Origin: a virus
Length of the DNA: 64,000 bases
Strand: one strand, 5' to 3'
IMG/VR virus record: IMGVR_UViG_3300037851_000568
Location: 10,139-74,138 of that record
Below are positions 8,941-37,331 of this stretch, one piece after another (the first letter of the stretch is position 1; each line of letters starts with the position of its first letter). The notes under the pieces were generated by a model. It saw only the letters and a program-made list of their open reading frames with translations, had not been told where the DNA came from and did not search any database. The translations under genes were made by a program, and so were the position numbers.

Positions 8941-10907
8941 ACATCAACGAAGCGACCATGTCCGTGAACATTGCGGGTGTTCCCCGGCCGTTCCGGATCA
9001 TCACCAAGGAGCAGGGCAAGAAGGAGTACGGGGCCCCGTTCTACGAGCAGGTGGCCGGTACCCTCCGTGGTGTTGCCGACAAGATCCGCTCCTCCGCTTC
9101 TGACGCCCGGTCCGCACGGACCATGGTGAAGGAGACCTTCGAGAAGCTTGGTATGGAGCCGGTCCAGAAGGCGGGCTTCCTGACCCAGCTGATGCGGTAC
9201 AAGGACGCCGCCGCGCTGGCGGACGCCCTCTACGACATCACCATCGACGGTCCCGACGGTCAGGCCTTCGTTGTCGGCGAGTCCGAGCTGAACGACCAGA
9301 AGTCCTCGTTCTCTGAGGCGTGGGACGCCCAGAGTGAGGACGAGCGGGCCAAGCACCTGTCCATGGCCGGGTACGACGGCGAAGAGCTGTCCGCCTACAA
9401 GAAGTTCACGTGGGACAACCTGCCTCCCGCTGTACGCAACCACGTCGAGGTGGTGATGGAGTCCTACAACCCCGGGGCGGCCGACATTCGTCTGCCGTTC
9501 CACGGGGACAACATCCCCAAGGCCGAGGTGGAGCCGGAGGCTGAAGAGCCCGCCCCCGAGGCCGAGGAAGAACCCGCCGAGGAGGAGCCTGCGGAAGAAG
9601 AACCGGCCGGTGACGTCGTCTTTGAGAACGCCATGACCGCCGTCAATTTCTTCCGCAAGATGTCGGGTATGACCGAGGCTGAGGAGCCGAAGGACGGAAA
9701 GGCTCCCGGCGTCATGGACGATCCGGAGGCGAAGGCCGACGCCGAGGCCGCCAGTGACGCGAATGCGTACAAGCCTGAGCCTGCCGATGCTCGCAGTAAG
9801 ACCTCGGAAGATCCAGAACTTTTGGCGCTGCTGGCCAAGGCGGCTGCTGGAGACAACGACGCTGCCGGTAAGGTGGCGATGAAGTACCGGCCGCTGATCA
9901 AAAAGATGGCCGCTGATGCGGCGGCTATTGGGAATGCCTACAGCAAGAAAATGTCCAGCCCGGACAGGCAGTACGGTCGTCTTGACTCCGGGGACATGGA
10001 GGACCTTGCCAGCGACGGTTTGATGATCGCCGTCAACGTTGCCAAAAAATTCGATCCTGAGAAAGGGGTCAGGTTTTCGACGTTCTTGACGCGGAAGCTT
10101 CTCGACCTTAGAAACACGGCGCGTGGTCTGGTCGCCAAAAAAGTCGGAACAGTCAGCGGCGATGAAAAGGTCCCCTCCAAGAAGTTCGGGTCCGCAGGAG
10201 ACGACTCCGGTAACCGACTGACCACGTTTTCAAAGGAGGACGTTGCGAAGGTCTTGGCCCAGCGGGCGCTTCTTCCCGACGCGTGCGTCAAGGCCATCGA
10301 TGCGGCCGTTGATGCGCTTGCTGAACCCGTTCGGACGATGGTGCGTCTGGCTTTCGGGTTTGACCCTGCTTTGGCCCGAAAGATCAATCCCAATAAGGAC
10401 CACTTGTCGTTCAGGGACATTGCTAATTATGTGGTCGACGCCAAGTTGGCACCTACTATGTCGCACGAGTATGTCCGCAAGCTCGTTTACGGGGCCATTT
10501 CCGATCTCGCCGTTGACAAAGTCATCAAGGGCTGCTGGCAGGACGTTAATCCTGCAGGCCCTGACGAGGCGGCGGCCAAGCGGTTCGACCCCGACTTCGA
10601 TCTGGCTGGATTCCTCGGCGACGAGGATTACAACGCCCTCTTCGAGAGCGGCGAGTTCTTGGAGTACCCGTCGGACATGGTGGCCAAGAACATGGAAGCG
10701 CTCATGCTCGCCGAGGGCGTCAAGGTTCGTCGGAAAGGCAGGCGCATCCACGTTCCGGTCAACGAGTATGGCCGGGCCAAGAAGGCCTTCGAGAAGCATG
10801 GCCTGACGATCCCCAAGAAGATGGTCAGCAACGACGGGGAGACCGTCCGCAAGATGACCCGGTTCGCAGGTCTGTACGGAGCTTCGATCCTTGACACACC
10901 CCACTAG
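8937..10907 (+). CDS. sigma-70-family factor (regions 2 and 4) fused within a larger acidic protein
   Basis: AAAGDNDA...KYRPLIKKMA, DMEDLASDG...AKKFDPEKGVRFSTF (region 2); LAEPVRTMVRLAFG...SFRDIA...SHEYVRKL (region 4 HTH). Confidence 0.75.
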   Translation: MNINEATMSVNIAGVPRPFRIITKEQGKKEYGAPFYEQVAGTLRGVADKIRSSASDARSARTMVKETFEKLGMEPVQKAGFLTQLMRYKDAAALADALYDITIDGPDGQAFVVGESELNDQKSSFSEAWDAQSEDERAKHLSMAGYDGEELSAYKKFTWDNLPPAVRNHVEVVMESYNPGAADIRLPFHGDNIPKAEVEPEAEEPAPEAEEEPAEEEPAEEEPAGDVVFENAMTAVNFFRKMSGMTEAEEPKDGKAPGVMDDPEAKADAEAASDANAYKPEPADARSKTSEDPELLALLAKAAAGDNDAAGKVAMKYRPLIKKMAADAAAIGNAYSKKMSSPDRQYGRLDSGDMEDLASDGLMIAVNVAKKFDPEKGVRFSTFLTRKLLDLRNTARGLVAKKVGTVSGDEKVPSKKFGSAGDDSGNRLTTFSKEDVAKVLAQRALLPDACVKAIDAAVDALAEPVRTMVRLAFGFDPALARKINPNKDHLSFRDIANYVVDAKLAPTMSHEYVRKLVYGAISDLAVDKVIKGCWQDVNPAGPDEAAAKRFDPDFDLAGFLGDEDYNALFESGEFLEYPSDMVAKNMEALMLAEGVKVRRKGRRIHVPVNEYGRAKKAFEKHGLTIPKKMVSNDGETVRKMTRFAGLYGASILDTPH

Positions 10908-23927: not shown

Positions 23928-26675
23928 ATGGGCGGACCTCTTGACTGGATCCGGTCGGTCTTCGGACGTCACCAGGACCGGATCGACAACGCCATCAACC
24001 CGGCAGCCGGAACGACCGGCGAGCCGATGGGGATGGACCTGTACAGCTACTACGGGATGGACGCCATCGGCGACTATCTCCGTGTTGATCAGGATCTCGT
24101 AGCCCGGTACCTCGACTACAACGAAATGATCTCCTACCCGGAGATCGCGGCGGCCGTGGACGTGTACGCCGAGGATGCCTGCATCACGGCCGATACGGAG
24201 ATCCCGTTTCTCGATGGGACTACTCATACGGTAGGGGATCTGTACGCACGAGGTGTTAAGGACGGCTGGGTCTACGGGTACTCCAGGGAGAAGAATCGGT
24301 TCACCGCCACCTGTTTTGAACGGGTGGACATGGTCAATCCTAATATCGAGATTTTGGAAGTCGTTTACCGGAAGCGTACCGGGGAGGCCGGGTCCATCAA
24401 GGTGACGCCGGAGCACAAGTTCCTGCTCAGGAACAACGAGTATGTTCGGGCGTCGGATCTGAAAGTCGGCGACCGGTTGATGCCGCTCTACCGTTGCCAG
24501 ACCAGACTTAGCCATGGTGTGAAGAACAAGTATGAACGCATCATGATCGACCCGAAATCCTCCTGCAAGAAGTGGTTGCCGACGCACATCATGGTGGCCT
24601 CCGAGATGTATACGACGGCACAGCTGGACGGGAAGCAGGTTCACCACAAGGACGAGAACACCCTCAACAACGATCCGTCGAACTTGGATCCGAAGACTCC
24701 GGCAGAGCACGCTTCGGAGCACCACGCCGAGCGACGGGATTATTCGGACTCGGAACTGGCGGAGAGGCTTCGCGAGCAGGTCAAAGGTGGGCGACAGGGA
24801 ATTCAGAAGGCCGCCCTTGGTGTCGGGCATAGCGTCAGCGAGTTGTGGCACTTGGTCAAGCGGATGGGGTACTCGGGTTGGAACGATTTCTTGGCCTCGT
24901 GCGGGGTGCCCGTCCGGAGGCTCAATCACCAGAAACCTGGAACCGATGAAGACCGGCTGGAGCAGGCGCTGACGGCGTACGCGGCTGCTCCAGAGGGTGG
25001 GGTCAAACGAGCCGCTAAAACCGTTGGATACAGTACCGGCGGGTTCTACATGTTCTTGAGACGGATGGGCATCACGCCGGTCCGATTCAAGGAGATGGCA
25101 GAGGCCGGAGTTGACGGCAACCATCAAGTCGTTGAGATCAAGGCGGCCGGGCGTGCTGCCGTCTACGACCTTGTGAACTCCCGGCAGACCGGGAATTTCG
25201 CCGCTGGCCGCAACGGCCATTACGTGGTGGTCAAAAACACCCAGCCCAACACCATGACCGGCGACACGGTCTGGATCGAATCCGATGACCACGAAGTTCG
25301 GACCGATCTTGGGGCCATGCTGAAAAAGCGGGCCCACATCGAGGACGAGATCTGGGGCATCGCCAAGACGCTGGTGATGTACGGCAACGACTTTTCCGAG
25401 ATCCTCGTCACCAAGGACGAAGGCGTCGTCGGTCTACATGCCCTTCCTCCGGAGACCATGCGCCGTGTGGAGGGCCTCAAGGGCGAGCTGTTGGGATTTG
25501 TACAGGACCCCTCCGGACAGTTCCGTGTCCAGCCTGCCGAGTTCGTGGAGATCCTCCAGAAGAAGAAGCCGGTCCCGTCCGGGGTCGTCATCTTCGAGCC
25601 TTGGCAGGTGGCGCACGACCGGCTTCAGACTCGGTATCGGCAGAGCCCGTACGGGCAGTCCGTGCTTGAGCCTGCGCGGTGGATCTGGAAGCGCCTTCTG
25701 CTGCTCGAAGACGCCATGATGATCTACCGGTTGACGCGGGCCCCGAGTCGCTTCGCGTTCTACGTGGACGTCGGGGAAATGCCGCCGCGTCAGGCGATGC
25801 GGTATATGCAGACGATGCGACAGAACTTCAGGAAGAAGAAGTTCGTCAACCCGCAGAGCGGCAAGCTTGACCTCCGGTTCTCGCCGCTGGCTCAGGACGA
25901 GGATTTCTACATTCCCGTGCGTGGCGGACGGGAAAGCACTCGCATCGATGTCCTGCAGGGTCCGGACTTCCCCGGATCTACCGAGGACACGCTCTACTTC
26001 TACCAGAAGCTGCTCACTGCCTTGAAAGTTCCGCCCGCCTTCCTCGGACGGGAGGAGAACACGGCGGCGAAGAACGTTCTGGCCCACGAGGACGTCCGAT
26101 TTGCCCGCGCCGTCATGCGTGTCCAGCGGGAACTCCGCAACGGCCTCAAGAAGGTCTGCGACGTCCATCTGGCTTCCCGAAACATCGACCCGGAGTCCGT
26201 GGACTACGAAGTCTTCATGACCACGCCGTCGGGCATCTACGAACTGGCACAGATGGAGATCCGGAAGGCCCGCGTGGAGTTCGCCGAACTGCTTCAGGAC
26301 GGCGAATGGGTCTCGAAGCGCTGGATCATGAAGGAGATCCTCGGGTTCAGCGACGATCAGGTGGATCAGATGATGGCGGAGCGGATGCAGGAGGAGGAGT
26401 CCGGCGGGGCTCCGCCCCAGCGGGCCGCCCGTCCGTCGGGGCCGCCTCCCGTCGAGCAGCTCCAGCCCGGGGAGAAGTACCGGCGGGTGGACGGTCGGCG
26501 GATCATCACCGACGACGTCGACAACGGCAGCAAGAAGGCGGAGGCGTACACGAAGAAGCACCTCGACGAGATGCTCAAGCACAACAAGGGCCTCGACAAG
26601 CGGCTGGCCCACTTGTCGGCGCTCTGTATGGACATCCGGTCGAACATGCGCCGTAACGGCAGCCACGGCGGATGA
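23928..26675 (+). CDS. portal protein (T4 gp20-like) with an intein
   Basis: YPEIAAAVD, IYRLTRAPSRFAFYVDVG, EDFYIPVRGG, YFYQKLLTALKVP. Confidence 0.9.
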   Translation: MGGPLDWIRSVFGRHQDRIDNAINPAAGTTGEPMGMDLYSYYGMDAIGDYLRVDQDLVARYLDYNEMISYPEIAAAVDVYAEDACITADTEIPFLDGTTHTVGDLYARGVKDGWVYGYSREKNRFTATCFERVDMVNPNIEILEVVYRKRTGEAGSIKVTPEHKFLLRNNEYVRASDLKVGDRLMPLYRCQTRLSHGVKNKYERIMIDPKSSCKKWLPTHIMVASEMYTTAQLDGKQVHHKDENTLNNDPSNLDPKTPAEHASEHHAERRDYSDSELAERLREQVKGGRQGIQKAALGVGHSVSELWHLVKRMGYSGWNDFLASCGVPVRRLNHQKPGTDEDRLEQALTAYAAAPEGGVKRAAKTVGYSTGGFYMFLRRMGITPVRFKEMAEAGVDGNHQVVEIKAAGRAAVYDLVNSRQTGNFAAGRNGHYVVVKNTQPNTMTGDTVWIESDDHEVRTDLGAMLKKRAHIEDEIWGIAKTLVMYGNDFSEILVTKDEGVVGLHALPPETMRRVEGLKGELLGFVQDPSGQFRVQPAEFVEILQKKKPVPSGVVIFEPWQVAHDRLQTRYRQSPYGQSVLEPARWIWKRLLLLEDAMMIYRLTRAPSRFAFYVDVGEMPPRQAMRYMQTMRQNFRKKKFVNPQSGKLDLRFSPLAQDEDFYIPVRGGRESTRIDVLQGPDFPGSTEDTLYFYQKLLTALKVPPAFLGREENTAAKNVLAHEDVRFARAVMRVQRELRNGLKKVCDVHLASRNIDPESVDYEVFMTTPSGIYELAQMEIRKARVEFAELLQDGEWVSKRWIMKEILGFSDDQVDQMMAERMQEEESGGAPPQRAARPSGPPPVEQLQPGEKYRRVDGRRIITDDVDNGSKKAEAYTKKHLDEMLKHNKGLDKRLAHLSALCMDIRSNMRRNGSHGG
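24180..25238 (+). mobile_element. intein in the portal gene carrying an HNH endonuclease and HTH modules
   Basis: Starts CITADT, block B VTPEH, ends VYDL...VVKN/T; VHHKDENTLNNDPSNL. Confidence 0.85.
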
Positions 26676-30366: not shown

Positions 30367-31770
30367 ATGCGTACTGATGTGGTGTCCCTGCCCGAGGCGC
30401 GTCGGTCTGTCGCCGATAAGGCCTTCACGGGCGCTCTCGCTACGAAGTGGAAGGACCTTCTCGAAGGCGTTCAGGGCGATCACGTGCGTCGGAGCACGGC
30501 GATCCTCCTGGAGAACGAGATGCAGTTCCTCCAGAACCTGACGGAGGAGACTCGTGCGGCTCAGACGGGCCCGTTCACGAAGTTCATCTTCCCGCTGATC
30601 CGTCGGGTGTACCCGAACCTGATCGCCAACAACATCGTCTCGGTGCAGCCGATGACGAGCCCGGTCGGCGCGATCTTCTTCTTCCGTTACCGTTACGGCA
30701 CCAACAAGGGTGCGACGACGGCCGGAACGGAGATGATCCCCCAGCCGAACTTCGACCGCTTCTACGGGAGCGAGTCGGTCTTCGGTGAGTCCATTGGCGT
30801 CGGTGACGGCGCTACGCTGGTGTACACCACGGTCCTGGACTTCACGCCGGTTCGTCTGCCCGGTCTGACGGTCACGGCCGGTTCGGTGGTCGGCACGGCG
30901 GACGCCGCTGGTTCGATCACGGGCACGGGCATCGTGTCCGGCTCCGTGAACACGGCTACCGGTGCGATCACGGTCACGTTCGCGGCCGCCCCGGCGGCTG
31001 GCGTGCCCATCGTGTCCAACTACCAGTACAACAGCGAGCTGAACCCCAGCGTGCCGCAGGTCAACCTGGACATCGAGCTGATCGAGGTCCGGGTCCAGAC
31101 CCGCAAGCTCAAGGCGCTGTGGTCCAGCGAGGCGGCGGACGACCTCCGCAGCCTGCACGGCATGGACATCGAGACCGAGCTGGTCGCCGGTATCGCCAGC
31201 GAGCTGGCCACCGAGATCGACCGCGAGATCCTCGACGACCTGCTGGGCGGTGCGCTCAGCGGCGTGCCGGGCCTCTTCGCTCCGTCGACGGACACCTTCA
31301 ACCGGCCCGCTCCGGCTGGCGTGTCCGACTTCGAGCACATCCGGGGCATCATCATCCCGATCTCGAACGTGGCGAACAAGATCCACAAGAACACCCTGCG
31401 TGCGCCGGGTAACTGGATCGTCTGCTCGCCCGAGGTCGCCTCGGTGCTGGACAGCCTGCCGTTCTTCCAGGCGGTGGATCCCGCGCAGTACACGTACACG
31501 GGGACCATCGTCAAGATCGGCACGCTCCAGTCGAAGTGGACGGTCTACAAGGACCCCTACTTCACGAAGGACCGGATGCTGGTCGGCTACCAGGGCCCCA
31601 GCTTCCTCGACACCGGCTACGTCTGGGCCCCGTACATCCCCCTGCAGGTGACGCCGACGTTCCTCGATCCGGCGGACTTCACCCTGCGGAAGGGTCTCCG
31701 TACGCGGTACGGCAAGAAGCTGGTCCGTCCGGAGTTCTACGGAACTGTTCAGGTCACGAACTTGCCCTGA
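30367..31770 (+). CDS. major capsid protein (T4 gp23-like)
   Basis: TAILLENE, PLIRRVYPNLIA, VQPMTSPVG, RKLKALWS, YVWAPYIPL, RTRYG. Confidence 0.95.
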   Translation: MRTDVVSLPEARRSVADKAFTGALATKWKDLLEGVQGDHVRRSTAILLENEMQFLQNLTEETRAAQTGPFTKFIFPLIRRVYPNLIANNIVSVQPMTSPVGAIFFFRYRYGTNKGATTAGTEMIPQPNFDRFYGSESVFGESIGVGDGATLVYTTVLDFTPVRLPGLTVTAGSVVGTADAAGSITGTGIVSGSVNTATGAITVTFAAAPAAGVPIVSNYQYNSELNPSVPQVNLDIELIEVRVQTRKLKALWSSEAADDLRSLHGMDIETELVAGIASELATEIDREILDDLLGGALSGVPGLFAPSTDTFNRPAPAGVSDFEHIRGIIIPISNVANKIHKNTLRAPGNWIVCSPEVASVLDSLPFFQAVDPAQYTYTGTIVKIGTLQSKWTVYKDPYFTKDRMLVGYQGPSFLDTGYVWAPYIPLQVTPTFLDPADFTLRKGLRTRYGKKLVRPEFYGTVQVTNLP

Positions 31771-31879: not shown

Positions 31880-31907
31880 TGGACAAACAGGAATCGGTGG
31901 TTATAGT
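31880..31907 (+). promoter_or_regulatory. promoter TGGACA-N16-TATAGT
   Basis: AT-rich region after the MCP terminator. Confidence 0.55.
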
Positions 31908-31945
31908 AAGTGAGCAAGGAGACGGAACTTCAGTGATTACGCAAG

Positions 31946-32073
31946 CCCACAACTGGTCCGAAGGCAAAACGACACGAGCGGCGGAGTTGCTCGTGAGCGG
32001 GTTTGCCATTCCCTGCCTGAATACCTCGCGGTATTCCGACAAGCCGCAGGGTAGGACGACCCCGGTTGTGGGA
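31946..32073 (+). ncRNA. unclassified structured RNA core (three-way junction)
   Basis: CCCACAACTGG/CCGGTTGTGGG closing helix enclosing GGCAAA/TTTGCC and CCCTGC/GCAGGG arms; has its own promoter and terminator. Confidence 0.45.
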
Positions 32074-32109
32074 GCGCGGAAGATGTAGCAGAAGTAGCCA
32101 GAAGACGCG

Positions 32110-32150
32110 ACCCCGCAACCGGGAAACTGGGTGCGGGGTTTTTTGTTTTT
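32110..32150 (+). terminator. intrinsic terminator
   Basis: ACCCCGCA...TGCGGGGT stem, GAAA loop, long T tract. Confidence 0.85.
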
Positions 32151-32279: not shown

Positions 32280-32353
32280 GCGGGTGTCGTTCAATGGCAG
32301 GACCTCAGTCTTCCAAACTGAAGACGCCGGTTCGATTCCGGTCACCCGCTCCA
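32280..32353 (+). tRNA. trnG: tRNA-Gly(TCC)
   Basis: Cloverleaf, TTCGA, CCA. Confidence 0.92.
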
Positions 32354-32354
32354 C

Positions 32355-32428
32355 AGGCCGGTGGTGAAGTGGTATCACGACTGTTTCCAAATCAGTAGTC
32401 CGGGGTTCGATCCCCCGCTGGCCTGCCA
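32355..32428 (+). tRNA. trnW: tRNA-Trp(CCA)
   Basis: Cloverleaf, G73, CCA. Confidence 0.88.
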
Positions 32429-32435
32429 AAAATTT

Positions 32436-32510
32436 GGTCCCGGAGTGTGACGGACAGCACGACACCCTGTCACGGTGTTAGAACGGGTTCGACTCCCGTC
32501 GGGATCGCCA
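32436..32510 (+). tRNA. trnD: tRNA-Asp(GTC)
   Basis: Cloverleaf, G73, CCA. Confidence 0.92.
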
Positions 32511-32511
32511 C

Positions 32512-32586
32512 TGGGGCGTGGTGTAACCGGTAGCACGTCTGACTCTGAATCAGAAAATCAAGGTTCGAGTCCTTGCGCCCCAGCCA
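32512..32586 (+). tRNA. trnQ: tRNA-Gln(CTG)
   Basis: U1:A72, G73, CCA. Confidence 0.92.
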
Positions 32587-32590
32587 ACTT

Positions 32591-32666
32591 GGACGACTAG
32601 CTAATCTAGTGAAAGCGCCGGTCTGAAAAGCCGGAGAGCCCGGAGCGAAACCGGGGTCGTCCACCA
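32591..32666 (+). tRNA. trnF: tRNA-Phe(GAA), T-loop AGCGAAA
   Basis: Cloverleaf, CCA. Confidence 0.85.
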
Positions 32667-32675
32667 AAAATTCGA

Positions 32676-32753
32676 CGCAGGGGAGAGGCACCCGGTGACC
32701 TCACCAGGCTCATAACCTGGGGCTTGTGGGTTCAAATCCCATCCCTGCTACCA
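32676..32753 (+). tRNA. trnM: tRNA-fMet-like (CAT)
   Basis: C1:U72 mismatch; CAT anticodon; only two of the three initiator GC pairs. Confidence 0.8.
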
Positions 32754-32754
32754 A

Positions 32755-32828
32755 GGGCCCGTCGTCCAACGGTAAGACACCTGCCTTGCAAGCAGGGAAT
32801 AGGAGTTCAACTCTCCTCGGGTCCACCA
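32755..32828 (+). tRNA. trnA: tRNA-Ala(TGC)
   Basis: G3:U70, CCA. Confidence 0.92.
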
Positions 32829-32834
32829 AATTTC

Positions 32835-32871
32835 GGGTGTGCTTGAATGTGGGAACGCTAGACTGTAAACT
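32835..32871 (+). pseudogene. 5' half of a disrupted tRNA-Tyr (overlaps a TTGAAT-N17-TAAACT promoter)
   Basis: GGGTGTG acceptor strand and CTGTAAA anticodon loop; pairs with CGCGCCC at 33513-33519. Confidence 0.5.
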
Positions 32872-32877
32872 ATCTTT

Positions 32878-33381
32878 ATGCCAGCTTTCGCGTCTTTAGA
32901 GCAACGATTCTGGTCGAAGGTCAAGAAGTCCGAATCCGGTTGCTGGTTGTGGATGGGGAGTCGGTCCAAATCTGGGTACGGATGGATTCATCTCGGAGGA
33001 AACCCGTACAAGGGCACCCGAAAAGGCGGAAGGGCGCATCGTGTCTCATGGGAGTTTGCTTTCGGCTCCATCCCCGATGGGCTAGATGTCCTTCACAAGT
33101 GCGATAATCCTCCATGCGTTCGCCCGGATCATCTCTTCCTCGGAAACGACTCCTCAAACGTACGGGACATGATCGAGAAGGGGAGGGCGTGGTTCCAGAC
33201 CCAACCCGGAGTAGCTCCTCGTGGGGAGAAAAATGGAAGGGCCAAGATGACGTGGAGAAGAGTTCGCCGCATCCGAAACCTGCATCGAAAAGGTGTTTCT
33301 CTTCGTGAGCTTGGGAGGATGTTTAGGCTCGACTTCTCTACAGTTGGAAGCATTGTTCGCAGGGAGACGTGGAAGGAATAA
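32878..33381 (+). CDS. free-standing HNH homing endonuclease (HNH + C-terminal HTH)
   Basis: FWSKV..GCWLW..GYG..AHRVSW..HKCDNPPCVRPDHL..N..DM..KGR, GEKNGRAK. Confidence 0.9.
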   Translation: MPAFASLEQRFWSKVKKSESGCWLWMGSRSKSGYGWIHLGGNPYKGTRKGGRAHRVSWEFAFGSIPDGLDVLHKCDNPPCVRPDHLFLGNDSSNVRDMIEKGRAWFQTQPGVAPRGEKNGRAKMTWRRVRRIRNLHRKGVSLRELGRMFRLDFSTVGSIVRRETWKE

Positions 33382-33474
33382 GCCGGGGCTGGGCAGGTCT
33401 AGGACAAAGAGCCCATCTGCCTGTAAAGCAGACGCCTTCGGGTTGTGTGGGTGCGAATCCCACCTCCGGCACCA
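33382..33474 (+). tRNA. trnY: tRNA-Tyr(GTA), enlarged D-loop, T-loop TGCGAAT
   Basis: TCTGC-CTGTAAA-GCAGA, long variable arm, CCA; starts immediately after the HNH stop. Confidence 0.85.
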
Positions 33475-33523
33475 AAACTCGTGCCCTTGTGGATAGGCGG
33501 TTCGATTCCTCACGCGCCCACCA
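33475..33523 (+). pseudogene. 3' half of a disrupted tRNA (T-arm remnant, acceptor strand, ACCA)
   Basis: GGTTCGATTCC...CGCGCCC-A-CCA with no 5' half adjacent. Confidence 0.55.
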
Positions 33524-33533
33524 AAGACTTCGC

Positions 33534-33601
33534 GGCTCGACGCGATCCTGAAAGACGTGAACAGGGATACCGAAGGAAATGTTGGCCCTGCGCGTCGAGC
33601 C
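33534..33601 (+). ncRNA. small unclassified structured RNA
   Basis: Perfect 11-bp helix GGCTCGACGCG/CGCGTCGAGCC between tRNAs. Confidence 0.45.
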
Positions 33602-33606
33602 CGTAC

Positions 33607-33680
33607 TGCCCTGTCATCTAACGGTAGGATGCTGGTCCTTGAAACCGGTCATGAGCGTTCGAGTCGCTCCGGGGCAACCA
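33607..33680 (+). tRNA. trnQ: tRNA-Gln(TTG) with C33
   Basis: U1:A72; loop CC-TTG-AA; CCA. Confidence 0.8.
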
Positions 33681-33688
33681 ATCTTTCT

Positions 33689-33763
33689 GGGGGAGTAGTC
33701 GAGCAGCAAGACGCCTCGTTGCCAACGAGGAGATCGCGGGGGCGGAACCCGTCTCCCCCTCCA
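33689..33763 (+). tRNA. trnG: tRNA-Gly(GCC), T-loop GGCGGAA
   Basis: Cloverleaf, U73, CCA. Confidence 0.85.
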
Positions 33764-33764
33764 A

Positions 33765-33839
33765 CGGCCCGTAGCTCAACGGTCAGAGCACTCGGTTGAT
33801 AACCGAGCGACGAAGGTTCGACTCCTTCTGGGCCGACCA
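33765..33839 (+). tRNA. trnI: tRNA-Ile(GAT)
   Basis: Cloverleaf, CCA. Confidence 0.92.
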
Positions 33840-33850
33840 GATTTCTACAT

Positions 33851-33927
33851 GGTGGCCATGGTGTAGTAGCTCTGCACGCCTGACTGTCACTCAGGAGGTA
33901 CGGGGGCGGAACCCGTTGGTCACCCCA
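33851..33927 (+). tRNA. tRNA with a His-type acceptor (G-1:C73) and Asp anticodon GTC
   Basis: G-GTGGCCA/TGGTCAC-C-CCA; CCTGA-CT-GTC-AC-TCAGG; T-loop GGCGGAA. Confidence 0.8.
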
Positions 33928-33933
33928 AAATTC

Positions 33934-34008
33934 CGGGACGTAGGGGAATGGTACCCCGCCTCTTTGGGGTAGAGGAAGTCGCGAGTTCGATTCTCGCCGT
34001 CCCGACCA
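33934..34008 (+). tRNA. trnP: tRNA-Pro(GGG)
   Basis: C1:G72, CCA. Confidence 0.92.
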
Positions 34009-34009
34009 C

Positions 34010-34083
34010 GCCCGCATAGGTCAGAGGCAGACCGCCAGCATGACACGCTGGAAACGGAGGTTCGATTCCTCCTGTGGGCACCA
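34010..34083 (+). tRNA. trnV: tRNA-Val(GAC)
   Basis: Cloverleaf, CCA. Confidence 0.9.
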
Positions 34084-34086
34084 CTA

Positions 34087-34160
34087 GCCGGTGTAGGATA
34101 ACGGCAGTCCACCAACTTGGTAAGTTGGGAGAGCGGGTTCGACTCCCGCCATCGGCTCCA
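34087..34160 (+). tRNA. trnT: tRNA-Thr(GGT)
   Basis: Cloverleaf, CCA. Confidence 0.92.
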
Positions 34161-34163
34161 CCT

Positions 34164-34239
34164 GCTGGCGTAGCTCAACTGGTAGAGCACCTGTTTTGTA
34201 AACAGGCGGTTGCCCGTTCAACCCGGGTCGCCAGCTCCA
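34164..34239 (+). tRNA. trnT: tRNA-Thr(TGT)
   Basis: Cloverleaf, CCA. Confidence 0.92.
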
Positions 34240-34266
34240 ATAAAAAAGCCCTCCGACAGGGAGGGC
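34240..34266 (-). terminator. minus-strand intrinsic terminator inside the tRNA array
   Basis: Minus strand reads GCCCTCC-CTGTC-GGAGGGC-TTTTTTAT. Confidence 0.6.
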
Positions 34267-34310
34267 CAAAGCTGGGTTGTCCACTAGGGACTGGACCAGC
34301 AGTATATCAC

Positions 34311-34384
34311 GCCGCTCTGGTGCAACAGCAGCACGCCGGTCTCATAAGCCGGAAATCCCGGGGCAGCTCCGGGGGGCGGTACCA
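34311..34384 (+). tRNA. tRNA-Met/Ile2(CAT), T-loop GGCAGCT
   Basis: Cloverleaf, CCA. Confidence 0.8.
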
Positions 34385-34385
34385 C

Positions 34386-34481
34386 GGAGGGGTAAGCGGG
34401 TGGGAACCCGCCGCCGTCTCGAAATCGGATGGCACCCGAGATTCAACCGGGTGTGGGGTTCGACTCCTCACCCCTCCTCCA
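34386..34481 (+). tRNA. trnS: tRNA-Ser(CGA)
   Basis: Long variable arm; U73; CCA. Confidence 0.85.
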
Positions 34482-34482
34482 C

Positions 34483-34572
34483 GGAGACGAAGGCAGTCAG
34501 CGTGCCGCAGCGGCTTGAACCCGCTTGCCCGGCCAGTCCGGGTCGCGTGTGCAACTCACGCCGTCTCCTCCA
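34483..34572 (+). tRNA. trnS: tRNA-Ser(TGA), T-loop TGCAACT
   Basis: Long variable arm; U73; CCA. Confidence 0.85.
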
Positions 34573-34582
34573 AAACATTCAC

Positions 34583-34668
34583 GGAGGCGTTGGGCATTGG
34601 CAGGCCCACTTCCTTGGAAAGGAAGCGTCGTAACTGGCGTGCGCGTTCGACTCGCGCCGCCTCCGCCA
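34583..34668 (+). tRNA. trnS: tRNA-Ser(GGA)
   Basis: Long variable arm; G73; CCA. Confidence 0.9.
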
Positions 34669-34669
34669 T

Positions 34670-34755
34670 GGAGAGGTAGGCTAATTGGTAAGCCACCACT
34701 TTGCTAAAGTGGCGCTGTAAAAGGCTTGCGGGTTCGAGCCCCGCCCTCTCCGCCA
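34670..34755 (+). tRNA. trnS: tRNA-Ser(GCT)
   Basis: Long variable arm; G73; CCA. Confidence 0.9.
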
Positions 34756-34814
34756 TCAAGAACAAAGGGTCCTGATCAGGATAGCGTGCTCAGCACGATG
34801 GTCGGGCCAAGAAT

Positions 34815-34888
34815 GGACGCGTGGCCAAATAGCAAGGCACCCGTTTGCAAAGCGGGTAGTGCAGGTGCAAGTCCTGCCGCGTCCTCCA
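34815..34888 (+). tRNA. trnC: tRNA-Cys(GCA), T-loop TGCAAGT
   Basis: U73; CCA. Confidence 0.88.
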
Positions 34889-34895
34889 AATATTT

Positions 34896-34972
34896 GCCGG
34901 GGTAGCTCATTTTAGTAGAGCGCCTGCTTCGTAAGCAGGAGGTGGCGGGGGCAGAGCCCGCCCTCGGCTCCA
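34896..34972 (+). tRNA. trnT: tRNA-Thr(CGT), T-loop GGCAGAG
   Basis: Cloverleaf, CCA. Confidence 0.85.
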
Positions 34973-34973
34973 T

Positions 34974-35047
34974 TCCAGCGTGAGGTAATGGTAGCCTGAC
35001 GGATTGTTAATCCGTTCGCGGTGGTTCGACCCCACCCGCTGGAGCCA
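34974..35047 (+). tRNA. trnN: tRNA-Asn(GTT)
   Basis: U1:A72, G73, CCA. Confidence 0.92.
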
Positions 35048-35052
35048 ATCTT

Positions 35053-35124
35053 GTCCCCGTGGCCGAGCAGAGAGGCTCCCGTCTTCTAAACGGGCCGACG
35101 TGGGCGCAAATCCCACCGGGGATA
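35053..35124 (+). tRNA. trnR: tRNA-Arg(TCT), T-loop CGCAAAT, no encoded CCA
   Basis: Cloverleaf; the next tRNA starts at 35126. Confidence 0.82.
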
Positions 35125-35125
35125 C

Positions 35126-35199
35126 GGCCTCGTCGTCTATCGGAAGGACGCCGCCCTCTCAAGGCGGAAAGGTGGGTTCGACTCCCATCGAGGCTGCCA
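35126..35199 (+). tRNA. trnE: tRNA-Glu(CTC)
   Basis: Cloverleaf, G73, CCA. Confidence 0.92.
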
Positions 35200-35204
35200 A
35201 TCTT

Positions 35205-35279
35205 GGGCCGCTCGTCTACGAGGTAGGATCTCTGGTTTTCACCCAGAAGAACGGGGTGCGACTCCCCGGCGGCCTACCA
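35205..35279 (+). tRNA. trnE: tRNA-Glu(TTC), T-loop TGCGACT
   Basis: Cloverleaf, A73, CCA. Confidence 0.87.
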
Positions 35280-35280
35280 C

Positions 35281-35354
35281 GCCTCCGTAGTCTAACAGGA
35301 AGAGACCCGGTTTTTACCCGGGGGATGGAGGTGCAAATCCTCCCGGAGGCACCA
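35281..35354 (+). tRNA. trnK: tRNA-Lys(TTT), T-loop TGCAAAT
   Basis: Cloverleaf, CCA. Confidence 0.87.
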
Positions 35355-35366
35355 ACAAAAATATTC

Positions 35367-35441
35367 GCCTTCGTAGGTCAATTGGAAGACGACCTCGCTC
35401 TTAACGAGGGGATCTCGGTTCGAGTCCGAGCGAAGGCACCA
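35367..35441 (+). tRNA. trnK: tRNA-Lys(CTT)
   Basis: Cloverleaf, CCA. Confidence 0.92.
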
Positions 35442-35446
35442 ATCTT

Positions 35447-35529
35447 GCCCCGGTGCTTGGAATTGGCATACAGCCCTCACTCAAAACGAGGGGCCGAAAG
35501 GCGTGTGGGTTCGACTCCCTCCCGGGGCA
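35447..35529 (+). tRNA. trnL: tRNA-Leu(CAA), followed by CCG rather than CCA
   Basis: Long variable arm; A73. Confidence 0.87.
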
Positions 35530-35533
35530 CCGT

Positions 35534-35617
35534 GGGCCTCTGATGGAACAGCAGACATGCCGGTCTTAGAAGCCGGTGCCGAAAGGCGTTGGGGTGCGAC
35601 TCCCCCGAGGCCCACCA
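35534..35617 (+). tRNA. trnL: tRNA-Leu(TAG), T-loop TGCGACT
   Basis: Long variable arm; CCA. Confidence 0.88.
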
Positions 35618-35627
35618 AAACATTCAT

Positions 35628-35713
35628 GCGCGGGTGGCGGAACTGGCAGACGCGCTGGTCTCAGAAGCCAGTGGGTAACACCCGTGGAGGTTCGATTCCT
35701 CTCCCGCGCACCA
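35628..35713 (+). tRNA. trnL: tRNA-Leu(CAG)
   Basis: Long variable arm; CCA. Confidence 0.92.
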
Positions 35714-35714
35714 A

Positions 35715-35788
35715 GCCCTCTTGGCGTAATGGCAGCGCACCTAGCTTACACCTAGGCGGCGGGGGTTCGATTCCCTCAGAGGGCACCA
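35715..35788 (+). tRNA. trnV: tRNA-Val(TAC)
   Basis: Cloverleaf, CCA. Confidence 0.92.
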
Positions 35789-35794
35789 ATATTT

Positions 35795-35878
35795 GCAGCC
35801 GTGGCGAAATGGCAGACGCGTCCGTTTGAGGGGCGGATGGGGAAACCCGTGGAGGTTCGACTCCTCTCGGCTGCACCA
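35795..35878 (+). tRNA. trnL: tRNA-Leu(GAG)
   Basis: Long variable arm; CCA. Confidence 0.92.
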
Positions 35879-35885
35879 AATTCAA

Positions 35886-35961
35886 CGGGCCATGGGGTAA
35901 TCGGCAACCCGCCTGCTTCGGGAGCAGGAACATCCCGGTTCGAGTCCGGGTGGCCCGACCA
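35886..35961 (+). tRNA. trnP: tRNA-Pro(CGG)
   Basis: C1:G72; CCA. Confidence 0.92.
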
Positions 35962-35969
35962 ATCTTCAT

Positions 35970-36045
35970 GGGCCGGTAGCTCAGCGGCAGGAGCGGCCAG
36001 CTCATAACTGGACGGTAGCGGGATCGTCACCCGCACGGCCCACCA
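35970..36045 (+). tRNA. tRNA-Ile2/Met(CAT), T-loop ATCGTCA
   Basis: Cloverleaf, CCA. Confidence 0.82.
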
Positions 36046-36046
36046 A

Positions 36047-36122
36047 CAGGCTCAGGGGTAGATAGCGACCCGCCTCGCTTGGAACGAGGAGAAGGAACGT
36101 GCAAGTCGTTCGAGCCTGACCA
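36047..36122 (+). tRNA. trnP: tRNA-Pro(TGG), A37, T-loop TGCAAGT
   Basis: C1:G72; CCA. Confidence 0.87.
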
Positions 36123-36128
36123 AATATT

Positions 36129-36432
36129 GGAGCGTTCGCTGTCGCTGCGGAGGTAGCAGTACCTCCTAGCTCATGGGACAACGGCCCAAACGAGTATCCG
36201 TAAGTCTCCAGCGCCCACACCCGCGAAGGGGCGCAAGAGGCGAGGCAGGGCGGTGGCATACGCCCGTCACGACCTGTACCTCGGAGATGATCTTGGCCGG
36301 GTCGCCGCAATAAGGGTTTGGGGTAAATCCTGCCGCGAAAGCGAGACGGGGCATGAAAGGTAGCGGGTGCCACGGCGACTAAACCCCGCAGCAGGTGAGT
36401 GGATAGGCAAAAGCGAGGTCAGCGAACGCTCC
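36129..36432 (+). ncRNA. raiA-motif-like large structured ncRNA
   Basis: 13-bp terminal helix; AAACGA-TATCC-GTAAG, TCCTGCCG..GCGAGA, CAGCAGGTGAGT-GGATA, CAAA..AGGTC; crossing (pseudoknot) pairings. Confidence 0.75.
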
Positions 36433-36437
36433 TTTAG

Positions 36438-36511
36438 GCCCCCGTGGTGTAGCAGAGGCACAGCTGTTTCCTAAACAGCAAGGTCCGGCGCAACTCCGGA
36501 CGGGGGCTCCA
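36438..36511 (+). tRNA. trnR: tRNA-Arg(CCT), T-loop CGCAACT
   Basis: Cloverleaf, U73, CCA. Confidence 0.85.
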
Positions 36512-36518
36512 AACATTC

Positions 36519-36593
36519 GCCCCGGTAGTGAAATGGACATCACGGCTCCCTCCGAAGGAGTCATTGCGAGTTCGAGTCTCGCCTGGGGCACCA
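36519..36593 (+). tRNA. trnR: tRNA-Arg(CCG)
   Basis: Cloverleaf, CCA. Confidence 0.92.
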
Positions 36594-36594
36594 T

Positions 36595-36671
36595 CTCCCC
36601 GTCCCGTAACTGGACAACGGTCCCGGCTACGAACCGGGCACATACAGGTTCGAGTCCTGTCGGGGAGACCA
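36595..36671 (+). tRNA. trnR: tRNA-Arg(ACG)
   Basis: Cloverleaf, CCA. Confidence 0.92.
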
Positions 36672-36675
36672 AAGC

Positions 36676-36703
36676 TTGGCGCTGCTGTCTGGCCTGATAT
36701 GAT
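36676..36703 (+). promoter_or_regulatory. promoter TTGGCG-N16-TATGAT (extended -10)
   Basis: TGnTATGAT; ATG at 36711. Confidence 0.5.
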
Positions 36704-36710
36704 TGGTGAG

Positions 36711-37331
36711 ATGGATATGAACGCCCAACGGAAGATGTCCCGGCCGACCCTGGTGCTCAACAAGCACTGGAGCCCGATCCAGACCGCCCCGGTACAGGAG
36801 GCGATCAGCCTTGTGGCCAAGGGCTCGGCCAAGATCATCGACCCGAAGACCTTCGAGGCCCACGATCTGCTGTCGTGGAACGACGTCTCCAAGGCCAAGG
36901 GCCAGTTCGAGGACTCGGTCATCCGGTCCGCCCACCTTTCGCTGGTGGCCCCGGAGGTGATCGTCCTGACCGGCTACGAGGGTCTTGCGGTCCGTTCGGT
37001 GGTTTTCAGCCGGAAGAGCTTGTTCAAGCGGGACCGGTACACGTGCCAGTACTGCGGCAAGCAGCCTGGTCCGTCGGAGCTGACCATCGACCACGTGATG
37101 CCGAAGTCCCGTGGCGGGATCTCGTCTTGGACCAACTGCGTGCTGGCCTGCGTGGAGTGTAACAAGTTCAAGGCCAACCGTACGCCGGACGAGGCCAAGA
37201 TGTCGCTCCGCAAGGTTCCGAAGAAGCCGTCTTGGAAGGCTCTGGCGGAGATCCCGTCGGTCGCCCGCCGGGAGTCGTGGGAGCAGTTCCTGTCTCGCGC
37301 CTACTGGGAGGTCGAACTCGAAGCTCGATGA
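36711..37331 (+). CDS. HNH endonuclease (McrA-like)
   Basis: TLVLN, RDRYTCQYCG, TIDHVMPKSRGG, NCVLACVECN. Confidence 0.9.
   Translation: MDMNAQRKMSRPTLVLNKHWSPIQTAPVQEAISLVAKGSAKIIDPKTFEAHDLLSWNDVSKAKGQFEDSVIRSAHLSLVAPEVIVLTGYEGLAVRSVVFSRKSLFKRDRYTCQYCGKQPGPSELTIDHVMPKSRGGISSWTNCVLACVECNKFKANRTPDEAKMSLRKVPKKPSWKALAEIPSVARRESWEQFLSRAYWEVELEAR

Follow-up and report, generated by a model that had tools for sequence, protein, structure and literature searches.

A strongly divergent variant of the raiA-motif RNA class encoded in the tRNA array of an uncultured freshwater jumbo phage

Introduction

The raiA motif is a chromosomal gene of Bacillota or Actinomycetota, which is often located near raiA/hpf or comFC. 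Its product is an abundant, stable, structured, stand-alone RNA with unknown function.

The class is covered by two main descriptions (Weinberg 2017, PMC5737381; Soares 2024, PMC10861870) and by cryo-EM structures (9ELY, PMC12286853; 9CXF, PMC11751092). Sporulation and aggregation are affected when the bacterial gene is knocked out, and the RNA is most abundant around stationary phase (PMC10861870). The clade-wise distribution of the motif has been used as an argument against its horizontal transfer (PMC10861870). We found no report of a raiA RNA in a virus or beside tRNA genes, and the searchable literature describes it from bacteria only. Kretsch et al. applied a raiA profile to phage genomes, and the accessible part of their text reports no phage raiA. 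Other large RNAs do occur in such a setting: GOLLD and ROOL are phage or prophage RNAs that are often found near tRNA islands (PMC12286853; PMC5737381), and GOLLD has also been described from Mycobacterium tRNA arrays (PMC7549688).

Here, we analyze a 64,000-nt stretch of viral DNA (the window; positions 10,139 to 74,138 of IMG/VR record IMGVR_UViG_3300037851_000568). An initial annotation, made without database searches, had proposed a raiA-like RNA within its tRNA array. We conclude that the phage RNA is a strongly divergent, phage-borne variant of the raiA-motif class.

Phage genome and tRNA array

The virus record comprises 86.9 kb and has a CheckV completeness of 37%, which implies a phage genome of more than 200 kb. 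The DNA originates from freshwater metagenomes and has a G+C content of ~61%. Upstream (5') of the tRNA array are the genes for terminase, portal, prohead protease and a T4-type (gp23-like) major capsid protein (30367-31770), while an HNH endonuclease, the tail sheath and baseplate genes follow on its 3' side. This places the RNA within the structural module, with the major capsid gene on one side and the tail genes on the other. The entity is an uncultured freshwater jumbo phage with a T4-like capsid; the closest capsid proteins among GenBank phages have less than 40% identity. It has its own sigma factor gene. Neither a Ribosomal_S30AE (RaiA/HPF) gene nor a gene with a phosphoribosyltransferase domain (the kind encoded by comFC) was found in the 87-kb record. 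Host inference was not possible from the protein atlas, which returned viral taxa only.

The features of the array that are relevant here are as follows:

32280-36671, plus strand: tRNA array that holds the RNA, with 35 tRNAs called by ARAGORN and further ones found by Rfam or by eye (~39 in total)
36046-36122, plus strand: tRNA-like gene upstream of the RNA, with anticodon UGG (Pro), T-loop UGCAAGU and an encoded CCA
36129-36432, plus strand: the whole raiA-like RNA (304 nt), matched full length by RF03072 and present as the same element in two related contigs (L002 and L003)
36438-36511, plus strand: tRNA-Arg(CCU) downstream of the RNA (ARAGORN)

All genes of the array are on the plus strand, and no terminator-like site was found on that strand inside the array. 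The tRNA-like gene was missed by ARAGORN and by Rfam, and its cloverleaf was read from the sequence. Its T-loop is UGCAAGU rather than UUCGAAU. Its anticodon stem is CUCG/CGAG as compared to CUGC/GCAG, and the anticodon and T stems covary with respect to L002 and to a metatranscriptome contig (run X20), which indicates that the gene is under selection. The RNA is separated by 6 nt from the CCA end of the tRNA-like gene (at 36122) and by 5 nt from tRNA-Arg(CCU); these spacers are similar to the inter-tRNA spacers of the array.

A separate unit of ~240 nt (31880-32150) is located between the terminator of the capsid gene (31817-46) and the tRNA array. In it, a promoter-like, sigma-70-like sequence (TGGACA-16-TATAGT, 31880-907) is followed by a strong terminator (32108-50). 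No convincing ORF is present in this unit, and none of the Rfam families matches it at gathering score. Its promoter-like sequence was considered as the promoter of the array and was rejected, because the terminator at 32108-32150 intervenes.

Two HNH homing-endonuclease genes are associated with the array, one inside it (32878-33381) and the other directly after it (36528-37331). An HNH segment is also found in the portal gene (23928-26675), and the terminase ORF reaches 1476 aa; both point to inserted elements.

Within the wider lineage, the array is not a constant feature of this position, since a relative with 66% capsid-protein identity (L127, IMGVR_UViG_3300031576_000346) has neither tRNA genes nor a raiA-like RNA within 10 kb downstream of its capsid gene. 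No raiA-like RNA was found in the examined DNA of a distant relative (L128).

Covariance model searches

The check that the initial annotation had named as decisive was a search with the Rfam raiA covariance model (RF03072). When run with E-value reporting, it matched 36132-36429 full length, covering all 209 model positions (41.4 bits, E = 8.3e-9). When the entire virus record is taken as search space, the E-value becomes 2e-7. The two relatives reach 58.7 bits (E = 1e-15 per record), while a canonical raiA RNA used as control (from contig L004, see below) scores 188 bits. When Rfam gathering thresholds are applied, only tRNAs are reported; the gathering score of RF03072 (101.3 bits) is not met by the phage RNA. 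With 41-59 bits, well below that score, it is a divergent relative and not a standard raiA member, and in this form the proposed raiA-like identity is supported. The phage copy also shows that the Rfam threshold misses real relatives, so that further variants may hide in viral and metagenomic data.

No other Rfam family matched the RNA itself at E < 0.05. The further matches at this level (tRNA and Plastid-ycf2) are both on the neighboring tRNA-Met (35970-36043). Neither GOLLD (RF01998) nor ROOL (RF03087) matched the phage RNA, even at E up to 10, and the Y RNA families in Rfam gave no match to it. ARAGORN found no tmRNA in the window.

The Rfam raiA model is older than the cryo-EM structures. 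With pk-1 represented as a nested helix and with P3 and P4 missing, it mis-assigns the 5' half of the phage RNA, which therefore had to be remapped by hand on the cryo-EM architecture. A MAFFT alignment was discarded, as it also misaligned the 5' half. We also built a covariance model from 43 bacterial raiA RNAs, using an RNAalifold structure in which P4 and P6 are wrong. It gave the phage RNA only 10.6 bits (E ~0.08) and aligned the 3' half alone.

Boundaries and fold of the RNA

The RNA is closed by a perfect stem of 13 bp, formed by GGAGCGTTCGCTG (36129-41) and CAGCGAACGCTCC (36420-32). Its minimum free energy is -131.7 kcal/mol (z = -2.7), more stable than 100 of 100 dinucleotide shuffles. 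The raiA-like nested fold, computed under constraints, has -125.9 kcal/mol and is thus within 6 kcal/mol of the minimum, without tertiary pairing being counted. The sole ORF across the element (36002-36373, minus strand) has a GC3 of 0.57, which is background, as opposed to 0.72-0.9 in real genes. The element 36129-36432 is non-coding.

The following parts are distinguished in 5' to 3' order:

36129-38, 36139-41 (CUG) and 36142-46 (UCGCU), plus strand: 5' strands of P1a, P1b and P1c, which pair with 36423-32, 36420-22 and 36412-16, respectively
36147-36168, plus strand: junction J1c-3a (G-C ... U-A) with the optional P2 hairpin GGAGGU-AGCAGU-ACCUCC at 36149-66
36169-36195, plus strand: P3 hairpin, with P3a GCUC/GAGU, A36173, P3b GGG/CCC, a 7-nt loop ACAACGG (36178-84) and the bulge AAC
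36196-36204, plus strand: P4 5' strand AUCC, which pairs with GGAU (36401-04), followed by the conserved GUAAG
36205-36287, plus strand: expanded P5 domain, with the base UCUCC/GGAGA and hairpins at 36211-34 and 36248-65 (from the constrained fold)
36288-36317, plus strand: pk-loop UGAUCUUGG (canonical UGAGCAUGG), with the candidate pk-1 strand CCGGGUC (36297-303) and a 14-nt insertion (from the block alignment)
36318-36346, plus strand: junction UUGGGGUAAAU, P6 5' strand CCUGC (36329-33), P7 mini-hairpin GC-GAAA-GC (36335-42) and the conserved GAGA (36343-46)
36347-36388, plus strand: P8 domain, with the closing stem CGGGG/CCCCG, the inner hairpin GGUA/UGCC and the single-stranded CGGCGAC (36373-79)
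36389-36432, plus strand: 3' core, consisting of CA, P6 3' strand GCAGG, UGAGU, P4 3' strand GGAU, J4-1c AGGCAAA, P1c 3' strand AGCGA, GGU and the 3' strands of P1b and P1a

In the P1a-P1b-P1c stack, all pairs (18/18) are Watson-Crick, and two of the P1c pairs are changed on both sides relative to the canonical UGGUU/GACCA. The P3 hairpin has the same length (27 nt) and geometry as the canonical GUCG-A-UGCC-AGUCGCA-GGCA-AAA-CGAU. The P5 domain comprises ~83 nt in the phage RNA as compared to a canonical hairpin of ~20 nt. The P7 loop is of the GNRA type in both the window (GAAA) and L002 (GAGA). P8 is devoid of the canonical E-loop. A gap-free alignment of the first 34 nt of the 3' core (36389-36422) to the canonical CAGCAGGCGAGUGUGGGGUCAAAGACCAGGUCAG has 25 identical positions; the last 10 nt are the variable P1a 3' strand.

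Core comparison with bacterial raiA RNAs

The architecture was taken from Haack et al. (PMC11751092) and was checked on 43 diverse bacterial raiA RNAs from GTDB genomes. The core was defined as 109 positions in seven gap-free blocks, which include P1b-P1c-G20, the 27-nt P3 hairpin, the P4 5' strand with GUAAG, the junction with the P6 5' strand, GAGA and the 34-nt 3' core. The phage RNA is identical to the bacterial consensus at 72 of the 109 positions. The mapped pairs of P1b, P1c, P3a, P3b, P4 and P6 all form as standard pairs (24/24), and ten of them are changed on both sides relative to the bacterial consensus. The rewritten helices are as follows:

P1c: UGGUU/GACCA in the bacterial consensus, UCGCU/AGCGA in the phage RNA
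P3a: GUCG/CGAU in the bacterial consensus, GCUC/GAGU in the phage RNA
P3b: GCC/GGC in the bacterial consensus, GGG/CCC in the phage RNA
P4: CCAC/GUGG in the bacterial consensus, AUCC/GGAU in the phage RNA

In helix P4, the canonical CCAC/GUGG is invariant in the bacterial sequences (43/43). The phage RNA forms four pairs in the same register, three of which are changed on both sides. As P4 is invariant in bacteria and rewritten in the phage RNA, this is natural compensatory evidence for the helix, the first known to us, and it separates nucleotides required for the fold from those needed for other things.

Plain identity of the P3-P4 segment (16/36) is not significant on its own. As an independent check, the 144-nt 5' interior was examined by a shuffle test which combines structural features: canonical P3 geometry, then a 4-nt complement of the fixed P4 3' strand, then GUAAG. 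None of 200,000 shuffles fulfilled this combination, and a single one did so (1/200,000) when one mismatch in GUAAG was allowed.

The raiA class is characterized by some 50 nucleotides with at least 97% conservation. Among the 72 columns that are conserved to at least 97% in the 43-sequence sample, 50 are kept and 22 differ. When only those columns are considered that were not imposed by our search pattern, 30 of 51 are kept. The lost conserved columns cluster in P3, P4 and pk-1. At the level of sequence, pk-2 and the core junction nucleotides are all present: C80, U82, C181, A182, A183, A57/A58 and G190/G191 align with C36292, U36294, C36408, A36409, A36410, A36202/03 and G36417/18, respectively. 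The discontinuous GNRA is kept (GCG, or GUA in the relatives, together with the A of CAAA), and so are the P3 adenosine bulge and GGU.

The pk-1 pseudoknot, in which the 7-nt P3 loop of raiA pairs with the strand next to UGG on its 3' side, remains unproven in the phage RNA. Three pairs can form in register (G36184-C36297, G36183-C36298 and C36182-G36299), with three more after a shift by 1 nt, and the duplex between the P3 loop region and CCGGGUC has -13.5 kcal/mol, with no covariation data. An alternative pairing, GUCGCCG/CGGCGAC, has -15.8 kcal/mol and overlaps the pk-1 candidate. The strands of both candidates do not vary in the family, so that covariation cannot test either of them.

Many of these segments had already been pointed out in the initial annotation. 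The closing stem, TCGCT (36142-46)/AGCGA (36412-16), TATCC (36195-99)/GGATA (36401-05), GTCGCCG (36301-07)/CGGCGAC (36373-79), GGGGT (36320-24)/ACCCC (36383-87) and CCTGC (36329-33)/GCAGG (36391-95) are all found where it placed them. The sequence blocks that it listed for raiA (AAACGA..CGUAAG, UCCUGCCG..GCGAGA, CAGCAGGYGAGU and CAAA..AGGUC) do occur as conserved blocks in bacterial raiA RNAs, in unchanged order and at the same spacing. The compensatory change that it noted at UCCAC/GUGGG is real: this pairing is P4 in the cryo-EM structure, and the phage RNA has AUCC/GGAU in the same register instead; for a second pairing that it named (GAAGU/ACUUC), inspection of the bacterial alignment revealed no covariation. 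Its view that several pairings cross and give pseudoknots holds only in part. The closing stem, P1c, P4 (TATCC/GGATA) and P6 (CCTGC/GCAGG) are nested, and only GTCGCCG/CGGCGAC and GGGGT/ACCCC would cross. Neither pseudoknot has been demonstrated: the former lacks any covariation test, and the latter competes with the P8 stem CGGGG/CCCCG.

The phage RNA is also remote from the bacterial raiA RNAs. Pairs of bacterial raiA RNAs (n = 108 RNAs) have at least 83 of the 109 core positions in common (median of 100 overall), and the median is still 98 when RNAs from Actinomycetota are compared to those from Bacillota. For the phage RNA, this number is only 65-76, whichever bacterial raiA RNA is used for comparison. 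This range applies to all classes, so that no nearest bacterial clade could be identified. By this count of common positions, the phage RNA is an outlier of the raiA class.

Relatives and selection within the phage family

Two IMG/VR contigs from other samples (L002 and L003) were found with a pattern for the conserved 3' core. They share the synteny of the window (tRNA-Met, tRNA-like gene, RNA, tRNA-Arg(CCU)), and their RNA is ~97% identical to that of the window. The main difference is an 18-nt hairpin (36149-66), which is absent from L002 and L003, where GUAA is found instead. Six bacterial raiA RNAs (L133, L217, L155, L166, L129 and L241) have a hairpin at exactly the same junction, and in the first four of these, the flanks G-C-[hairpin]-U-A are identical to those in the window. 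An optional P2 substructure has been described by Soares et al. (PMC10861870). Judged by its position and flanks, the extra hairpin of the window is this optional P2 stem. Between the window and the two relatives, P3a is changed from U-A to C-G (36171/36193) and P3b from G-C to G-U.

More distant variants (80-95% alike) were detected in public contigs from at least five further freshwater and sediment studies. Only two distinct full phage-type sequences are available, and the other variants were obtained as difference tables only. Several differences are compensatory. In run X8, an A-U pair of P2 is replaced by C-G (36151 A>C with 36164 T>G), and 36170/36194 (C-G to U-A) together with 36171/36193 represent two compensatory pairs in P3a. 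In a contig from run X3, the inner hairpin of P8 is GGCCGC-GG-GCGGCC, which is again compensatory. In run X4, the hairpin 36248-65 is replaced by an unrelated one (UGUUG-CCGAAAA-CGACA). Several of the 80-95% alike contigs occur in one rRNA-depleted sediment metatranscriptome. This suggests that the RNA is expressed but is no proof, as DNA carry-over is possible; the contigs show neither strand nor ends nor level.

One metatranscriptome variant (run X20) has a loose end at window position 36168. It begins with GAAGCGUUCGGUCUGUCGCUGAA and has the canonical GU bulge and a GAA junction, both of which are absent from the window, and is thus intermediate between the bacterial and the phage-type 5' ends. 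The sequence upstream of it (AAAAAUU) does not correspond to the 3' end of a tRNA.

Distribution

A pattern search across 2.9 million IMG/VR contigs found the phage-type RNA only in this lineage. Three further patterns, applied to IMG/VR, retrieved only L002, L003 and L004. A loose IMG/VR pattern matched at least 119 stretches, of which only those already known survived a second filter. When the phage RNA and two canonical raiA RNAs were compared by blastn to 50,697 GenBank phage records, no match was obtained. Two scans of metagenome contigs with family-specific patterns yielded nothing real; their single match (L249) was rejected as a chance match, as it has no raiA match and no tRNA. No tRNA was found within 1 kb of bacterial raiA at any of 114 loci (0/114), so that the tRNA context is peculiar to the phage.

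A canonical raiA RNA was encountered once in IMG/VR (L004:12-217, 188 bits), where it occupies the extreme end of a viral contig of 27 kb. A prophage tyrosine integrase gene (L004:325-1527, minus strand), with a repressor module (Peptidase_M78, HTH) behind it, is only 108 nt away, so that this raiA copy most likely represents host flank or an attachment site. By analogy to tRNA and tmRNA genes, prophages may use the raiA gene for their attachment.

The raiA 3'-core pattern also retrieved three Atribacterota MAG contigs (including L207) with a complete canonical core; this phylum is outside the two reported for raiA. An Oxalobacter contig (L172) has only a poor core (54/109) and is probably due to chance or contamination.

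Interpretation

Our reading of this locus is that the phage carries a selectively maintained gene of the raiA class, that its RNA is released by tRNA processing, and that it supplies or retargets raiA activity in the infected cell. As a whole, we assign this reading a probability of roughly 0.7. Its parts differ in strength. We are highly confident that 36129-36432 is a raiA-class RNA under selection. Release of the RNA from the tRNA transcript is probable. Its acting in place of a host raiA RNA, in a function connected with translation or dormancy, is a tentative proposal, for which the odds are somewhat unfavorable.

The RNA would be co-transcribed with the tRNA array. This is inferred from the common strand of all array genes and from the lack of an internal terminator-like site; transcription and promoter have not been observed. 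RNase P is predicted to cut at 36437/36438, which is 5 nt past the 3' end of the RNA, and maturation of the 3' end of the upstream tRNA-like gene would free the 5' end of the RNA by a cut 6 nt before it. The 18-bp P1 stack may then shield the ends, so that a stable RNA of ~300 nt would accumulate; again, the ends have not been observed. The RNA is presumed to fold like bacterial raiA and to supply or retarget its unknown activity as part of a translation-support module. Given its placement among tRNAs by the phage, the target would most plausibly be linked to translation.

An alternative, which we consider improbable, is that the RNA is a decoy or antagonist. It would have kept the raiA scaffold with rewritten recognition surfaces (P3 loop/pk-1, P4 and a P8 without E-loop) and would titrate a host partner or block the stationary-phase or dormancy programme. 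The largest departures from otherwise invariant nucleotides are indeed in pk-1, P4 and P8, and the bacterial phenotypes (effects on sporulation and aggregation upon knockout, with an RNA peak near stationary phase; PMC10861870) would fit such a target. However, compensatory rewriting of stems is equally expected of a fast-diverged functional homolog, there are no data on a partner, and the host is unknown and may have no raiA at all.

There is only a slim chance that the RNA has a phage-specific role in the tRNA operon which is unrelated to raiA, be it as a scaffold for folding or processing, as a stabilizer of the precursor, or as a binder of tRNA or ribosomes as proposed for GOLLD and ROOL. 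That phage and prophage RNAs of these two families are often near tRNA islands (PMC12286853; PMC5737381) speaks for such a role, as does a tRNA context that is confined to the phage. A mere spacer or scaffold would, however, not require the raiA core junction nucleotides, and raiA is a monomer, not a cage.

A functionless, decaying relic of a host raiA gene that was captured once is very improbable. The score below the family cut-off and the loss of many otherwise invariant positions could be read in this way, but a decaying copy would break helices, so that the fully intact set of mapped pairs counts against it. Moreover, the relatives retain ~97% identity, and the variants with 80-95% keep their stems by compensatory changes. 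A chance resemblance, in which a G+C-rich structured spacer or another RNA class happens to have short raiA motifs, is practically ruled out: although our own model gave only E ~0.08 and the identity of the 5' segment alone is not significant, the Rfam E-values (1e-7 to 1e-15), the shuffle test (0/200,000), the seven collinear and gap-free blocks and the absence of other Rfam families (E < 0.05) and of a tmRNA (ARAGORN) stand against it.

We thus retain a selectively maintained raiA-class gene as the preferred reading. A broader scenario, in which phages captured and remodelled a raiA RNA and express it from a tRNA operon so that it acts on the translation or dormancy machinery of the host, goes further and is rather unlikely on present evidence. 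If true, it would place the biochemical function of raiA RNA in the biology of tRNAs or ribosomes, and the phage variant would define a minimal invariant core, in which the junction nucleotides are kept despite a rewritten P3, P4 and pk-1. A virus-borne copy means that the raiA class can move and can evolve fast.

Comparison with known systems

The closest system is the raiA motif itself (RF03072). The phage RNA has the same order and spacing of P1a/b/c, the optional P2, P3, P4, P5, the pk-loop, P6, P7 and P8. Common sequence blocks are CUGU..G, the A-UG of P3, the AAA bulge, GUAAG and UGA.C.UGG, followed by GUAA.UCCUGCC, GAGA, CAGCAGG.GAGUG, CAAA and GGUCAG. The phage RNA differs in that P4, P3a/b, P1c and both pk-1 strands are rewritten, in a 14-nt insertion after the pk-1 strand, in a short P8 without E-loop, and in the replacement of G102 by A. 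The genomic setting is also distinct: the phage RNA is flanked by tRNAs, whereas the raiA motif is found on the chromosome near raiA/hpf or comFC.

A tmRNA in the tRNA operon of a phage follows the same logic, being a stable structured RNA that is located between tRNAs for release by tRNA-processing enzymes; in contrast to tmRNA, the phage RNA has no tRNA-like domain and no tag reading frame.

GOLLD (RF01998) and ROOL (RF03087) differ in being 600-800 nt long and in forming multimeric nanocages, while raiA is a compact monomer. Like the phage RNA, they are large, ornate, phage- or prophage-encoded RNAs of unknown function that are often found at tRNA islands. As for GOLLD and ROOL, the position of the phage RNA within a translation-support module is a testable clue to function.
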